Below are positions 36,290-61,727 of a stretch of DNA of 64,000 nt, in pieces. The stretch spans positions 24,738,001 to 24,802,000 of the forward strand of contig OX597821.1 in NCBI GenBank assembly GCA_951406725.2. The letters run 5' to 3'. Source of the DNA: Octopus vulgaris (lineage: Eukaryota). The translations under genes and the position numbers were made by a program. How positions within the stretch are numbered: position 1 is the stretch's first letter; each line of letters begins with the position of its first letter. Under the pieces are notes generated by a model, which was not told the DNA's origin, did no database searches, and was given only the letters and a program-made list of their open reading frames with translations.

Positions 36290-36546
36290 ACCTAACCCTA
36301 ACCCTAAAACCCTAACCCTAACACCCTAACCCTAAAACCCTAACCCTAAAACCTTAACCCTAACCCTAAAACCCTAACCCTAAAACCCTAACCCTAAAAC
36401 CCTAACCCTAAAACCCTAACCCTAACCCGAAAATCCTAACCCTAAAACCCTAACCCTAAAACCCTAACCCTAAAACCCTAACCCTAACCCGAAAACCCTA
36501 ACCCTAACCCTAACCCGAAAATTCTAACCCCAACCCTAAAACCTTA
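36290..36546. repeat. Interstitial telomere-like array (CCCTAA / CCCTAAA, ~13-bp period)
   Basis: Direct reading: accctaaaaccctaaccctaaaaccctaa... Confidence 0.95.
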
Positions 36547-36817
36547 AAGTTAAAACCAGTACAAACGCACGAACGCTGTCATAAATAACAGTGACAAACG
36601 AAAAATACACCGGCGATAGTTGTTGTTGACATTGATTGGTTGAAATTACCGAAATACGACTACTTTAACGTGAAATAACTTCGTAAATATAAGCTTTTCT
36701 CAAAAATACTGAGAGTAAAAGATGTTTATATGACACATTCTACCAGTGTCCGAAGTTTGAAACTGTTTAGTTACAAAAAATTATTTTTTAAATCTGTAGG
36801 TCAAAAAGTAAAGATCT
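36547..36817. mobile_element. One arm of the GGATC-ended MITE family, continuous with the telomere-like array
   Basis: attgattggttgaaattacc...cacattctaccagtgtccgaagtttgaaactgtttagtt matches 27280-27420 and the reverse complement of 8090-8220; ends aaagatct. Confidence 0.78.
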
Positions 36818-40055: not shown

Positions 40056-41390
<1,335 letters not shown>

Positions 41391-41555
41391 ATGCAATCCT
41401 CAGTTTCTTTTTGCTCCGACAATTCTCTACAATCATTTTATTTATTTATTGTTGTTGTTGTTCCAATGGTCAGGCAGTCAGTCTGTTGCCAGCATACTCC
41501 GAGTGGCAGATTAGGTATGCCGTGACTCCTAATGCGCAGACACGCTTTTAGGTTT

Positions 41556-41985
41556 CGTCACCTGCAACGATTTCTAGATGGTGAGAGTGCGTGGGTTCCA
41601 TTTATGAAGCCCGTCTTTCCGCAGTCGTTACCTTGACGAAGCTGCAGTCCTGGGTGAAGAAAAGACCGAAACTGGTGGCAATGGGATCTGTAGTGATGAT
41701 CGCAAGGCCACCCTCTTTCAATCGAGCTGGCAAGGCAGTTTTCATTTGCCTGGTGGCTGTGATGAAAGAGATTGTTTGGTGGATAAGGATGAAAGGCATG
41801 AAGACAGATACATCCCTCATTGGTAAAGACCTCATTGACTTTTTCAAGTTTCACTTAGAAAGGAAATTGAGAGTGGAGAAGGGGGTGCTGTCCTTGAGTG
41901 AGTTTATTGAAAGGTGAGCGAAAGTTTTGAAAATGGCAAGAGTGGATAGTACCTTTCTAAGTGTAGACCTGCTCCACCCTCATTG
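41556..41985 (+). mobile_element. Tx1-clade ORF2 3' end (probable continuation of 38760-40055)
   Basis: ORF 41591-41917 LVAVMKEIVWW...FFKFHLERKLRVEK. Confidence 0.8.
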
Positions 41986-41989
41986 CAAA

Positions 41990-44650
41990 CCCTATTGTTC
42001 CATCTACTTCTCTTAACTTCCCAAGCTAACCTGTCATATCTATCGACTTTTCTTTCGTCCTTATCCGATACTTTGTTGTCTGCTGGGCATGCTTTTTCTA
42101 TTATCCAGCATAGTTTGTTTTCTTTCTCAATTAAGACTATGTCTGGCTTCCCATTCCCTATCTCATGGTCACACTGAATCATAAAATGCCATAGGATCTT
42201 TGCATTTTTATTTTCGATTATGCCTTCGGGTTTCTGGTTGCACCAATCTTTTGCTCTCTCAAGTCCATACTTGTTGTAGAGTGTCCAATGGACAAGCCTG
42301 GCTATATTGTCGTGGCGTCTGTTATATTCCTTCTGGGCTAGCGGCGTACATTGGCTGGTAATATGCCATACGGTTTCACCATTTTGTCCTCAGATTCAGC
42401 ACTTATTACTTTCTGATGTGATGTTTATTCTGTATTTTATGTAGTTTCTTCTTAGTACTTGCTCTTGGACAGCACAGATTAGAACCTCCTTTTTCCAGTT
42501 TTAAATCACTTTTAGTCATCGACAGCCATCTTTTTTTCTCTGTCTGTCTTATCTTCAGCATCCCTATGAAATTTTCCATGAATTCTTTTCTTTACCCACT
42601 TATTTTCAGTTTCATTCGTTTTCAATTGCTTGTACAGTGCTTTATCTTTTCAATCTTTCATCCTACACAAGCCTGACCTTCTTACTTCTAATAATAGCGG
42701 TTTTGTGGCATTTTTTACATACCATGCTGTGTTGTTTTCTTCTACTCTAATGCTGTGTTCGCATCCAACAAGTCTTCTTCCCACTCTTTTTCTTGGTACA
42801 TACAGTCTGTCTGTGTCACTTTTTGGTTGGAGTGTCCCATGTCTAGTTAGCAACTTCCTTGTCTTTCTGTCTAAGCTGTTTAGTTCGTCTACTGTCCATG
42901 CGATTACCCCTGCTCCATATCAAAGTAGTAAAACCGTCCAGATGTTGATAGCTTCAATCTTATTCTGTCCGTTTAATTTCGACTTAAGGATGAGTCTGTC
43001 TGCGCAAATACTCCACCTTAAATTTTTCCGTCGTTTCATTCTCTATCAATTTATCCATTTCCAAAATCCCCAAGTACTTATAGCCCGTCTCTTCTATCTG
43101 TTTCATAACCTCACCCGACGGTATCGTTAACCCGTCCATACATTTGATTTTTCCTCTCTTCAAGACTAACACACCACAATTTCTCAGTTTGAACACCATT
43201 CTGATATCAGCACAGAAAGTATACACCATATCAACGAGGGAACTGACTTGGGCTTCATCATTACCATAAAGTTTGAGGTCATCCATGAATAACAAATAGT
43301 CGGCTTTTTGTTGGCGGCTTTTGAATGCATACCCAGCTTTTGCTTTCCTCAGAATCAGTGTTAGTAGTATCAAGCACAGTAGAAAGAAGTGGGAACAGGT
43401 AGTCCCCTTGGAAGGTGCCCCTCCTGATTTCTAATGTACCTAAACTTCTTCCGTATGCTATCAGGTCTGTCCTCCAATTCGCCATACTTTTCCCAAGCAA
43501 TCGCTCAACATTCGATGCAATACTAAATAGGTTCATACATTCCATTATCCAAGAGTGTGGGATCATATCGTACGCCTTACTATTGTCGATCCATGACATG
43601 GATAAGTTACTTTTCCTTCTCTTGCAATCTCTAATTACGATTTTATCTATCAGGAGTTGATCCTTTGTATTTCTGCACTTATGCTTGCAACCCTTCTGTT
43701 CATGTGACAGGATTCCATTTTTTTCCAGATGTTCGTACATTGACTGCGAATATTCCAGTCAATAGCTTCCACATAAGTGGCAGATAGGTTATCGGCCTGT
43801 AATTGTCTACCGTGTTGCCTTTTTCGATATTTTTCAAGCACAGCACTGTCCTACCCAATGTCAACCACTCTGGTGATACTTGGGCGGCATTTAACAAGGT
43901 GTTGAGTTGCGCAGCTATTCGTACATGACATTCACCAAATCTTTTGATCCATCTGGTTCCGGGCCCTTCCAGTTGCTCATATATTTTGCTGATTTCCTTC
44001 ACTTCCCTAACTGGAATGACTAGTTCTGCCTGTTTTGGACAGACTACTGTTTGTTTCAGTTCTTGCAACCATTCAGCATCCTTCTTGTGCTCCTTGTATT
44101 TGCTCCAGATGTCAATCCAAAAACCTCTGACTTTCATTGTTATCTGATATCAACTTTTCATTTGTACACTCTCCATTTATTTCTTTATAGAATCTCTTCT
44201 GATCTACTCTGAATAACCGATTCTGTTGGTAACCTTTCATTCTTTGGTCGTATCTTACCACCTTTGCTTTCTTTGCAGCGAGGCGCCGTTTCAGTTCTTC
44301 CATTACCACTTCCAGGCCCTTTCTTTCAATATTATACTTCCTTTTCAGCGCCCTGTATTTTTGTTCGCTTCCTCTTTTCGGTCTAACACAGAAGTTTCCT
44401 TCGAGGGCATATCTAACCCTGCCTGTATTCTTCTTTTCCACCATATATCTTTTCTTTTATCACTCCCCATTATGTTCCTTTTTCTTGACATAAACACCCA
44501 CGTTTTCTGCTACAACAATACTTGCTGCCTTGACCAAATTATTTGTTTCAGTGATGTTTTTTGTTCTGATATATTTCAGAATTTCATTGACATTTTTCGT
44601 TTCTTGGTTCAGTTTACATCGATCAACCTTTTTACTACTACCAACGAGCA
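41990..44650 (-). mobile_element. R4/Dong-like RLE non-LTR retrotransposon, 2.7-kb disrupted ORF
   Basis: NYRPITYL, EQKGC...[49 protein letters not shown] (PD-type endonuclease). Confidence 0.93.
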
Positions 44651-44789
44651 CTGTGAGCGCTGCCCTTGGCCTTGAAAAGAAGTAATTCAGCTTGTTCTAT
44701 CTGTAATTACTGATAGAAAAAAATAACAATAATATATATATATACTAATATTCACTTCGTTGGATTATTGAATTTCTGAATTCAATTGT

Positions 44790-45935: not shown

Positions 45936-46535
45936 TTGGGTTGGCAACTAAGTTCCCGCCGTTCTTTTAAATTTTGGAATTTATTGCGTTTTTAAATTTT
46001 CGAATCTATTTTTTTCGAGAATTCTATTTTTGAATCATTTTGGAATCTATCTTGTTTCTATTTTTTCTATTCAATTTTTGTTAATTTTTATTTATTTTCA
46101 GATCATTAAATTGGAATGTCAAGTTAAGAAAAATGAGCATCTTCGACACCTCCTTCTTTTTGCTTTTAATCAAGGTTCTAAGGCTGCAAAAGCTGCTCGC
46201 GATATTTCTGCTGTCTATGTAGAGGGTGCCATAGCTGAAAGAACCGCTTGTGGTTGGTATGCCAAGTTCAAAAATTTTGACCTCATAGATCCACCTCGTT
46301 CAGGCTGTCCAGTTGATTTCAATGAGAAGCAATTAAACCAACTTTTGCACGAAAATTCTCGTCAAAAGACAAGGGAACTGGCAGAGAAAATAGAATGCTC
46401 CCACACTACTATAGAGAAGCATCTTCACTCGATAGGAAAGGTTCAGAAGTATGGAGCATGGGTTCCGCATGCTTTAAGTGACAACAAGAAAAATCAACAA
46501 GCCACAATCTCCACTGGTTTGCTTGCTCGTCACCC
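45935..46535 (+). mobile_element. Mariner element 5' half (TIR plus HTH domain to WVPH motif), truncated
   Basis: TA-ttgggttggcaactaagtt TIR; KNEHLRHLLLFAFNQG..AARDISAVY..W..KFK..PRSGCP..GAWVPHAL. Confidence 0.92.
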
Positions 46536-46879
46536 TTTGTTTTGCCACACCATTTTCATAACTTTGTCCTAAACGTTCATGTTTGTTTTCAGACTTTTAG
46601 TCATCCTTTGTTTCATAGGTTCTGAGTAATATAAAGCCGGTCTTTCATTGGTCCCCAGTAACTCATGTCGTTGAAAAAATTTGCTAAAGTGTATCACGTA
46701 TGACGCATGGCCGGCATGGAAATATGTCTTCTGTATCACATGTTATACACAGGACAAACAAAAATATAAAAAGAGTTTGAGGAAGAGAAAATTTATGGTA
46801 ATTTTGAACCTGGATACGTCGTGAGTAAAGAATGAAAGAAACGACGTATTTAAAGGATTTACATAACATTGATTTCAAA

Positions 46880-55309: not shown

Positions 55310-56160
55310 AGGGATTCAGCCCTCCACTTTAACCCTCAGCACTACATCTTCCACCGCGATGGTTTCTATGATCTTTTCAATGTCTTCTGGGGTGGCTTGA
55401 CTTAATAACTCGAGCTCATGTTCTTATGGGCCGTGCACGTGGCTTGGAGGACCACTACTTTCTCCTCCAAGCCTAACAGGATCGCGTCTACTAACCAGGC
55501 TACATTTATCTCTGGGGGTATGTCCTCCACCTTCGCTTTGGAAGTACACCTTCCTAGGTAGATGGGTAGGAGCACTATATCCTCCGTTATCTGCAGGGTT
55601 ACAGATGGCAGCCTGCGGTTACTGTATCCCTGAACCGCACCCCCACTGTCTCGTACTTCATGCCTCTTTTAATGTGCATTATTTCGCCCCATATGGGCTT
55701 AAGTGCTTTTTCAATTTGACTTGGAGCGATTACTTCAATTTTTTTACCCTCTGCCGAAAGCGTTCGAAATATAATTAATTTCTCCTTTTGACTTAACATG
55801 ACATTTTGGGCAGGGACACATTTACATTACTTCCATCCTTTTTCAATAGTTCATTTAAACCTTCCAATCTGGTTTAAATTAATATTTTTCTGGTGACTTT
55901 TAGCTGCCTTTGCAAAATTCATCTTGTCTACGTTTTCAGTTGCTCTGAGGAGTTCCTCTTCTGAAGAAAAAATATTCAGAAGAGCTCACGCTATAGAACA
56001 TCATTGAAGCTACGCAGCCCCCTACAAAAAGAGAACAGTGCAAAACAATTGAGCCGTAAAACAGCAATACAAGTGTTCAATAATGCGAGTCATTAACAAG
56101 ATAAAACACAATTTTTCCCATTTTTCACAATTTTCACTGACCTTTCGTAATAAAGACGAC
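55310..56160 (-). mobile_element. LINE ORF1-like remnant (Tx1-type)
   Basis: KLIIFRTLS..IKRGMKYETVGVRF, LLPIYLGRCTSKAKVEDIPPEINVAWLV, resembling 28900-29200. Confidence 0.6.
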
Positions 56161-59701: not shown

Positions 59702-60886
59702 CAGGGTGCGTAAGATATTTGAGGACATATTTATGTTTATAAAAAAAAACAGATATATAATAACAGATAATAACTTTAGTTATCAAAAATTGCTATGAGG
59801 ATAAAAATGAACCTTCTTTTCTATAATGTTATTCAATAAAGCCACCTTCGGCTTCAACAATTGCTTCTATATGAGATCTAAAACATCTACATGCTTGAAT
59901 CAAGTGGTCCTGGTCACATTTTGGACATTAATCTGACTATGGCAGCTTTCATAGAATCTTTAGTGTTGTGGGCGTGTTCCCTGACCTCTCTCTCAACAAC
60001 GCTCCTCATTTAATAGTCCAATGGATAGAGATCTGGGGAATTAGGAGGCCAAATGTTAGGGGTTATGTGATCAAGAAAACTTTCAGCTATCCATTCCTGT
60101 GTTACTTGAACCATGTGTGATAGTGTAATCTTACTGAAACTCAAGGTGGCAGGGTTAACTCTAAGACTTTGTAGAAAGAAGTAAGGAGGCATCACATACC
60201 CTTCATTGCTGACAACCACTAAAACCATAGCAGTTGCAGGAAATTTTGTATGCATAACGCTTGGAACTGCAGAAGGGTCTGCAGATAATCGTCTGTCATT
60301 TCTTATGTTAACTTTTTGATCTTGGTCAAGTTTTTCTCGTTTAAGACAAACCAAATCAAATCTTCTCCTGTTGGATTTTTCAGTTTGTTTAAGAGCCTTA
60401 TAGATCTGATATAGTGATTTTTTTTGCTTTCTCGGACAAATTGACCTTTCCTTATATAAGACTTATATCCGATGTATTCGTGGACAACATTTCTAACTGC
60501 TCCTTCTCACACATAGAGATCTTTTGCAATTGACCTCATGGACTTTCTGGGATTGAAATCAATGGTCTATTGAACTTGTTGGTGTTTTGATGATTTCAGA
60601 GCTTTTAGAATTCTTTTTATGTTTTGATACTAGTGATACGTTTCCATCTTCAGTCTCTAGCTCCTTACAAACTTTGTAGGCGAAAGATCTGGCAACTTCT
60701 AAAACTCGAGATATTTCTAAATCACTATGCTCAGCCTCTATAATCACAATAACAGCATGCCTCTTCCTTTCTTGAGTAAGCTGAGCGTCTGCCTTGTTAC
60801 TTTTTGAAAAAAATATTATACAAGGTTAATAAAAAATGTAGCAATGATCTAAAAAAGGTATGTCCTCAAATACCTTATGCACCCTG
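59702..60886 (-). mobile_element. maT/DD37D-like Tc1/mariner element with both TIRs, disrupted transposase
   Basis: TA-cagggtgcgtaagatatttgaggacata ... tatgtcctcaaataccttatgcaccctg-TA; HTKFPATAMVL..WPPNSPDLYPLDY; HTH fragment at 60559-60747. Confidence 0.92.
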
Positions 60887-60945
60887 TATGTATATATATA
60901 TATCGCTAGCACGACTATTTTCTCTCCTTGTTTCTTTCTGTGTTC

Positions 60946-60981
60946 CTTTCTGTGGAAGAGCGTAGGCTCGAAACGTTAAAG
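60946..60981 (+). ncRNA. Minimal hammerhead-like motif (core variant CTGTGGA)
   Basis: CTTT-CTGTGGA-A-GAGC(gtag)GCTC-GAAAC-GTT-AAAG: stems I and II and palindromic ACGT stem III present. Confidence 0.6.
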
Positions 60982-61069
60982 ACTTTTCACTTCCCGAGCG
61001 TTATACTAATACATCTGTTTCTTGTCTACACCACCTGTCTTCGTCTTTTGAATTTTTTGTGAATTCTCC

Positions 61070-61122
<53 letters not shown>

Positions 61123-61123
<1 letters not shown>

Positions 61124-61183
61124 TCTAGCAAAAACTGTCTGATGAACGGCAACGAGAAACTCAGAGTAACAGATTTTGTTGAA
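61123..61183 (+). ncRNA. Type I hammerhead ribozyme, intact core
   Basis: caaaaactgt-CTGATGA-a-CG(GCAA)CG-a-GAAACT(cag)AGTA-acagattttg; predicted cleavage after GUA at 61168. Confidence 0.75.
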
Positions 61184-61203
61184 TTTTCTGCGCTTAAAAT
61201 AAA

Positions 61204-61268
<65 letters not shown>

Positions 61269-61370
61269 GTATGTATGTATGTATGTATGTATCTATGTAT
61301 TATGTATGTATGTATGTATGTATGTATGTATGTATGTATAAATATATGGATCGATCAAAACAGTTTGATT

Positions 61371-61431
61371 CAAATTCGTTGGTACTCTTGAGTTTCAAGC
61401 GTGATGCTAGTCATCAGCCATTTTGAATTTG
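61371..61431 (-). ncRNA. Type I hammerhead ribozyme, intact core
   Basis: Minus strand caaattc-aaaa-tgg-CTGATGA-ct-AGC(atcac)GCT-t-GAAACTC(aa)GAGTA-cca-ac-gaatttg; predicted cleavage between 61383 and 61382. Confidence 0.8.
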
Positions 61432-61727
61432 CATGACAGAAGTTGATTGTTAAGACCAGAAGGTGCGCTGCAGTTGGTAGAGGAAGGTCGTCCCTTGTTT
61501 TAACCGTGTATACTCGCGTACGTGCGCGTGCGAATGCACATGTGCACGCACACACTGGTATGCATGCGTACATGCATGCGATTATACATATGTACATATA
61601 AATGAATATGCGTGTATGTGTGTGCATGTGTGCGTATATGTGTGTATGTGTGTGCATACGCGCGCGCATGTTCGTCCAAGCGTGTGTGTGTTTGTGAGTT
61701 TGTGTGTATGTGTGTGTGTGTGTGTGT

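Follow-up and report, generated by a model that had tools for sequence, protein, structure and literature searches.

The window analysed here, a stretch of 64,000 nucleotides of Octopus vulgaris DNA, is animal DNA full of microsatellites and mobile elements, and the three hammerhead ribozyme motifs (H1, H2 and H3) that cluster near its end are, with high probability, the 3' ends of three families of Penelope-like elements (PLEs), which reached the site by separate insertions, probably all into a single TA microsatellite; H2 and H3 are of the published Hydra design. We regard the cluster as likely to be ordinary transposon debris, not a built RNA-cutting device, and the locus itself as most likely neutral.

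Results

Hammerhead motifs and the repeats that carry them

The three motifs (Table 1) lie where an earlier note on this DNA had put them, at 60946 and 61123 on the plus strand and at 61371 on the minus strand. All have the ordinary type I strand order, and the non-circular order of Naiad and Hero, with a split or permuted core, was found in none of them. The intact cores claimed for the two convergent motifs are present in both H2 and H3 (CUGAUGA...GAAA...GUA), and the cuts are predicted between the same residues as before, 61168/61169 in H2 and 61383/61382 in H3. The description of the spacer between these motifs as (TA)n holds for the (TA)30 that follows H2, but this tract gives way to (TATG)n, and H3 adjoins TATG/TACA, not pure TA.

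Table 1. Features of the hammerhead cluster, in window coordinates
Feature	Positions	Strand	Basis
Short (TA)n preceding E1 and adjoining the right inverted repeat of a DNA element flanked by TA	60887..60902		sequence
E1, ~170-bp very high-copy dispersed repeat carrying H1, TA on both sides	60903..61072	+	contig depth
H1, minimal type I hammerhead, A6U core variant	60946..60981	+	sequence, descriptor
(TA)25 between E1 and E2	61073..61122		repeat scan
E2, ~80-bp high-copy repeat, Hydra-type hammerhead end, TA on both sides	61123..61204	+	contigs
H2, type I hammerhead, intact core	61123..61183	+	sequence, descriptor
(TA)30 then (TATG)n, bounded by the 3' end of E2 and the 3' end of E3	61205..61340		sequence
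E3, less abundant dispersed repeat, Hydra-type hammerhead end facing the microsatellite, 5' edge uncertain	61341..61489	-	contig depth
H3, type I hammerhead, intact core	61371..61431	-	sequence, descriptor

In H2, stem I pairs 61135-61138 with 61169-61172 and can be extended to the limits of the motif; the core CUGAUGA (61139-61145) is followed by A61146, a CG-GCAA-CG hairpin (61147-61154), A61155 and GAAA (61156-61159), and then by the palindromic stem III arm ACUCAGAGU and a GUA site. Stem II is a 2-bp GNRA hairpin, and A10.1 stands opposite A11.1. The core of H3 (61417-61411) has an extra C after A9, U61409 opposite U61397 (U10.1/U11.1), a 3-bp stem II (AGC/GCU) and the palindromic arm ACUCAAGAGU. 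H1 has the core CUGUGGA (60950-60956), in which A6 is replaced by U, and we therefore file it as a core variant, not as a canonical hammerhead. It has an extra A after A9, a 4-bp stem II with G10.1-C11.1, a 4-nt palindromic arm (ACGU) and a GUU cleavage site at 60977, which is GUA in most copies of its family.

An exact-core loose descriptor matched 3 positions in the window; 60 block shuffles averaged 0.37 such positions, with a maximum of 4. Allowing one core mismatch raised the count to 14 positions, against a shuffled mean of 6.9 and a maximum of 14, so that this test alone does not single out H1. A strict descriptor, which was written after the motifs were seen and is hence tuned to them, gave four matches, namely H1, H2, H3 and 55945, where 100 Markov shuffles averaged 0.15 per 64 kb. 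The match at 55945 (+) has weak stems and no TA beside it, and is probably due to chance. The Rfam hammerhead families had no match in the window at the gathering score or at E<=10; sub-threshold Rfam matches were to miRNA models, driven by microsatellites, and were rejected.

Repeat families were delineated by aligning Logan contigs of four DNA runs to 60700-61560, the middle of the stretch being masked as repeat. These contigs break at repeats and none spans the cluster. In run X1, 18,219 contigs were placed on this interval, with a single-contig depth of 22-60. The summed depths, which are not equivalent to copy numbers, reached 3.9 × 10⁶ for E1 and 2.0 × 10⁶ for E2 in this run, where E2, aligned on its own, drew 1,648 contigs (184 in run X11); E3 reached 6.8 × 10⁴, with a drop beyond 61454 and several contigs spanning 61357-61489. 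Loose ends of the family place the 5' edge of E1 near 60900. The 3' end of E2 lies 36 nt past the cut site, at (TA)30, and loose ends of its family at 61191 lead into TA-rich sequence, whereas E3 ends about 40 nt past its cut site, at a short TA followed by (TACA)n. These depths show dispersed high-copy families in runs from several organisms. At E<0.1, E1, E2 and E3 show no similarity to one another or to any other part of the window, in which no tandem unit was found, nor the retrozyme arrangement of such a unit with at least two consecutive hammerheads. The three motifs belong to three different dispersed high-copy repeat families that are unrelated in sequence.

The core varies within these families at N7 (60954 G/A/T) and H17 (60977 T>A, 82% of the depth in X1) in E1, at N7 (61413) in E3, and at 11.1 in E2; these best-supported variable sites are all positions that hammerheads tolerate. 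Position 11.1 (61155) is the only variable site in E2, in a variant table that is complete at 4%; G accounts for 37% and T for 21% in X1, and X11 has T in 99.8% of the depth. Because 10.1 stays A while only 11.1 varies, the lack of G10.1-C11.1 in H2 is a trait of the family, to which H2 is identical at all but one site. The U-U of H3 would similarly be fixed in E3, as no change at it is found among the variants listed. E2-family sequence also occurs in runs X15 and X20, which are guessed to be RNA (105 and 55 contigs, respectively), a presence at the level of the family and not of the locus. From the E2 loose ends at 61123-61156, contigs lead upstream into an inverted, E2-like hammerhead in head-to-head orientation (8 contigs in X1; both DNA and guessed-RNA runs); assembly or library fold-back may account for such pairs, and the same head-to-head pair is found at metagenome locus L023.

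No change at core position 6 appears among the E1 variants listed, and U6 is apparently present in most of the family. The abundant E1 family thus seems to have been amplified with U at this position (60953) while N7 and H17 vary. Our literature search yielded no case of a natural A6U hammerhead, and A6C hammerheads are reported to have low activity (PMC3088659, PMC7151607). A search of GTDB genomes with the H1 pattern gave 120 matches, 4 of them with CTG in front and none with hammerhead context, and these were set aside as chance.

A shared module with covarying stems and Hydra-clade proteins

H2 and H3 share the module GAAACUC-A(A)-GAGUA. Metagenomes searched with the pattern CTGANGA-N8-16-GAAACTCA(N)GAGTA yielded 121 matches at 119 loci, 42 with stems I and II and 79 without these. 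The pattern leaves 10.1 and 11.1 free, and in the 42 structured matches this pair was U-U in 36 cases, G-C in 4, and G-U and A-U in one each. Hammerheads of 25 Hydra families are given in File S2 of Craig et al. 2021 (PMC8557442), among which, by our own count, 14 have U-U and 5 have actc-N-gagt. The earlier note was right that G10.1-C11.1 is missing from H2 and H3, for which it expected that activity may be low, but this absence as the sign of a poor copy is not supported, given the prevalence of U-U among both sets of relatives. Judged from these sequences, the missing pair is a trait of the clade and not a product of decay, and the module is a signature of the clade and not a local feature. 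Because U-U is the usual state of the module, strict descriptors and Rfam miss such motifs.

In 12 of the 119 loci, a same-strand remnant of a Penelope-like open reading frame (ORF) with Hydra-clade motifs ends 40-443 nt upstream of the module. The ORF profile was built from five loci and found those five and seven more, with opposite-strand matches in three others. The protein family, comprising P0001 and 81 homologues, has [YF]RDD in all 82 members, DK[TS] in 73, RW[KR] in 63, CxCX5C in 56 and CxxC..E..LN..CxH in 65, with DKG in only 3. The prevalent motifs, DK[TS], RW[KR], CxCX5C and CxxC/CxH among them, are those described as traits of the Hydra clade (Craig et al. 2021, PMC8557442), and by these motifs the family is of Hydra type.

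The earlier note had proposed that H2 and H3 are conserved in structure without being identical in sequence, and had asked for covariation of the stems among homologous copies. Such covariation is present in stems I and II: when H2 and H3 are aligned with the 12 ORF-linked motifs, which gives 12 distinct rows, 92.9% of the cells are paired, compared to 73.8% after shuffling (0/500). Both partners vary in six of the seven stem I/II pairs, and sliding the register lowers the score. This set is partly circular, given that five loci were first picked as structured, the sequences are related and most loci come from few assemblies. A separate count over nine distinct ORF-linked motifs gave 35/36 paired cells in stem I and 27/27 in stem II. 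Stem III, which the search pattern itself dictates, lies outside this score; the covariation holds across the module families, the variation within E2 being too small. Viral contigs gave six matches to the module pattern, each with at most one stem I pair, and these were rejected. An animal-derived metagenome contig (L113:260-620) contains a tandem array of ~135-nt units, each with a Hydra-type hammerhead, that resembles a retrozyme.

Searches with the Hydra profiles found no PLE ORF remnant in the window, nor the RT and C-terminal GIY-YIG ORF of an autonomous Hydra-clade element. We accordingly class E2 and E3 as Hydra-type ends and not as autonomous members; what links them to Hydra is the anatomy of the hammerheads, not an ORF joined to them in this genome. 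A suspected GIY-YIG C-terminus upstream of H3 (PSGLN or a Hydra-type LNKR..CxH end) was rejected, with a score below 0 bits and a rank of 937 or worse of 5,736 in the Hydra C-terminal profile search.

TA tracts as insertion targets

The view that (TA)n tracts are preferred landing sites of these elements, put forward in the earlier note, finds support both in published families and in the relatives detected here. By our own count, 26 of the 27 Hydra families in File S1 of Craig et al. 2021 prefer to insert into (TA)n (PMC8557442). Among the structured relatives, 9/35 have (TA)>=4 within 130 nt downstream, compared to 7/533 background windows (Fisher p 4 × 10⁻⁸), and 4/39 have it upstream, again compared to 7/533 (Fisher p 0.004), although these loci mostly come from few assemblies and are not independent. 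In both E2 and E3, the hammerhead lies near the 3' end, next to (TA)n, as in a Hydra-type end. The arrangement of TA on both sides of E1 and E2 suggests that one ancestral tract was split twice, with E3 pointing into its TATG-rich end.

The window has 24 merged groups of (TA)>=6 tracts, and a hammerhead core lies within 150 nt of none but those in this cluster, so that uniform targeting of TA does not explain three insertions at one spot. The pile-up requires a hot spot, insertion beside earlier copies, or the after-the-fact choice of a striking window. Insertion of PLEs next to earlier copies is stated in a review (PMC6765202), and in Schistosoma, where copies are mostly solitary genome-wide, pairs of hammerheads lie 100-700 bp apart on opposite strands (PMC4209133). 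Among the metagenome loci, L069 has two unlike hammerheads that are convergent, at a distance of about 500 bp, with no (TA)n between them. Another candidate, L053, also has no (TA)n between its convergent motifs and was discarded because its motif on the plus strand is too weak to be accepted as another hammerhead.

Predicted folding and cleavage

In folding models, the stem III pairs of the monomers have a probability of 0.00-0.08, so that no stable stem III is predicted in a monomer, and the active folds lie 8.2 and 6.2 kcal/mol above the minimum free energy (MFE) folds, which pair the core; these nearest-neighbour energies ignore core contacts and protein help. Between copies, the arms of H2 and H3 form 8-bp duplexes, with predicted energies of -7.4 kcal/mol for H2/H2, -7.1 for H3/H3 and -6.0 for H2/H3, compared to +1.0 for the incompatible arms of H1 and H2. 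The models thus predict that stem III needs two copies in order to form, the palindromic arms favouring dimers as in PLE hammerheads, and the locus offers no compatible same-strand partner; H2 and H3, being on opposite strands, are never part of one transcript. The solitary copies at this locus would, under these models, show little cleavage or none.

Single minimal PLE hammerheads are reported to show no detectable cleavage, and their dimers low cleavage (PMC4209133). The hammerhead of the PLE PAc is assisted by protein in vitro, and no RNA-seq reads were reported to end at its site (PMC11167929). Given that stem III is predicted to need a second copy and that the locus has no compatible same-strand partner, the suggestion in the earlier note that the cluster might truncate host RNA is unsupported. 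The motifs come from unrelated mobile families, and when 80 ORFs between 47,900 and 64,000 were compared with Pfam, there were two weak sub-cut-off matches and no host exon was recognised, although short exons are missed by such a test. From the folding models and the published assays, we consider locus-level truncation of host RNA unlikely. In plus-strand RNA from 61073 to 61264, the two (UA)n tracts are predicted to form a ~50-bp helix around H2 (-66.6 kcal/mol); stem III still fails to form, and the helix disappears once E1 joins the fold.

Mobile elements and repeats around the cluster

The cluster begins at the right-hand TA of an element at 59702-60886, which has 28-nt terminal inverted repeats (93% identical, starting with CAGGGTG), TA on both sides and a high copy number in the runs. 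This element resembles a Tc1/mariner remnant; the pieces of ORFs in it had no Pfam match. Beyond the cluster, two nested pairs of inverted repeats of 90-100 nt (62094-62193/63771-63870 and 62581-62671/63645-63735) are likely to be nested DNA elements or MITEs. The window further contains an interstitial CCCTAA telomere-like array with variant units (36291-36547), a broken non-LTR retrotransposon reverse transcriptase with a weak RVT_1 match (40966-44700, minus strand) and a mariner Mos1-type HTH domain (45952-46569, plus strand; PF17906, E 4 × 10⁻¹⁶).

Discussion

The results suggest a simple model for the origin of the cluster. Under this model, the GIY-YIG endonuclease of a parent element would nick AT-rich DNA, much as PAc, an element of the anole, has been shown to cut at AT-rich sequence (PMC11167929), its reverse transcriptase would copy RNA from the 3' region of the element, and early termination would leave the hammerhead-bearing end alone, in either orientation. 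The copies at this locus would be 5'-truncated or non-autonomous derivatives, and the ribozyme would have served the parent, its palindromic stem III arm pairing with that of a second copy as in tandem elements. With insertion in either orientation, convergent pairs would arise without any selection for them.

The motifs could also be parts of a composite unit or retrozyme-like cassette, in which either H1 and H2, whose cut sites lie on the same strand 191 nt apart, excise a circularising RNA of that length, or one insertion has E2 and E3 as its two arms. Inverted truncated copies are frequent in PLE insertions (PMC8557442), and an inverted E2-like piece indeed lies upstream in E2-family contigs (8 in X1), but the inverted arms that have been described are copies of one element, whereas E1, E2 and E3 are unrelated and differ in depth (~10⁶ for E1 and E2, ~7 × 10⁴ for E3). 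The tandem array in L113 demonstrates that hammerhead units of ~135 nt can be repeated; at the octopus locus, however, there is no such unit, the arms of H1 and H2 are incompatible, and H1 carries A6U. We hold this composite origin to be very unlikely.

A broader scenario, which we rate as very unlikely, is that TA microsatellites already containing a PLE end become landing pads for multiple families. Since unrelated Hydra-type families have the palindromic stem III arm in common, as the predicted H2/H3 duplex illustrates, their many thousands of genomic copies could supply the missing part of one another's active sites in trans, or act with the PLE protein, and would then cut host pre-mRNA across families and throughout the transcriptome.

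It is highly improbable that the cluster itself is functional, such that transcripts from either strand would be cut at H2 or H3, perhaps with PLE protein or a copy acting in trans, and intronic or intergenic RNA would be truncated. The intact cores of H2 and H3 face each other, as this reading would have it, but intact cores are also expected of young copies, and H2 barely departs from its family. E2-family sequence is found in two guessed-RNA runs, yet these contigs speak only for the family, and no host gene is recognised nearby. Protein assistance has been seen in vitro (PMC11167929), but the same source reports no RNA-seq ends at the PAc site, stem III is not predicted in monomers, whose MFE folds pair the core, and published monomers are inactive and dimers weakly active (PMC4209133). 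The local pile-up above the TA-density expectation also favours a function.

Finally, chance matches in AT-rich, microsatellite-rich DNA, which the 6.9 loose one-mismatch positions per shuffled window, the lack of Rfam matches and the 79 unstructured of 121 metagenome matches might suggest, are a barely credible explanation, and one largely refuted for H2 and H3, in view of high-copy families that vary at tolerated positions, covariation and likeness to published Hydra motifs.

On the preferred reading, that of three independently inserted PLE ends, a known class gains two Hydra-type hammerhead families that had not been listed and one abundant family of minimal hammerheads with A6U; the class, its design and its target are known, and E1-E3 are the additions. 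We found no description of these families in the literature on hammerheads in octopus, on the Hydra clade since 2021, or on G10.1/C11.1/U10.1 and A6U, and the words hammerhead and ribozyme are absent from a 2026 repeat annotation of Octopus vulgaris (PMC13282606). U-U or A6 variants may already have been described in Lunse et al. 2017, reportedly the original paper on dimeric hammerheads of PLEs, or in the figures of PMC4209133. If solitary ends were to cut host transcripts in trans or with the PLE protein, the finding would matter more, given the very large number of genomic copies.

H2 and H3 resemble the published hammerheads of Hydra-clade PLEs in being of type I, within ~100-200 nt of the 3' end, with a 4-bp palindromic stem III and a centre of 1-3 nt (PMC8557442). 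Specifically, H3 is like Penelope-3_HM, with its actc-a-gagt, U-U and ATGG stem I, and H2 shares the CTGT/ACAG stem I of Hydra-2_aMil, but none of the 25 motifs listed in that source is identical to either. H2 differs from these families in its 2-bp GNRA stem II, with A opposite A/G/U, and H3 in its combination of an extra C after A9, U-U and a 2-nt centre; furthermore, unlike the published elements, the octopus locus has no ORF. The hammerhead of Hydra-1_Obim, a (TA)n-preferring element of Octopus bimaculoides, is different from H1-H3, with other stems II and III (PMC8557442). The minimal hammerheads described in metazoan PLEs (Cervera and De la Pena 2014, PMC4209133) have, like H1, one additional nucleotide between 9 and 10.1, G10.1-C11.1 and the palindromic 15.2-16.2; H1 differs from them by A6U. 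Like the metazoan non-LTR retrozymes (Li et al. bioRxiv 10.64898/2026.07.22.740005; PMC7229834), the octopus elements are non-coding, carry a type I hammerhead and are linked to PLEs; however, those retrozymes are described as tandem repeats of one unit with a hammerhead each, whereas the octopus cluster consists of three unrelated solitary units split by microsatellites.
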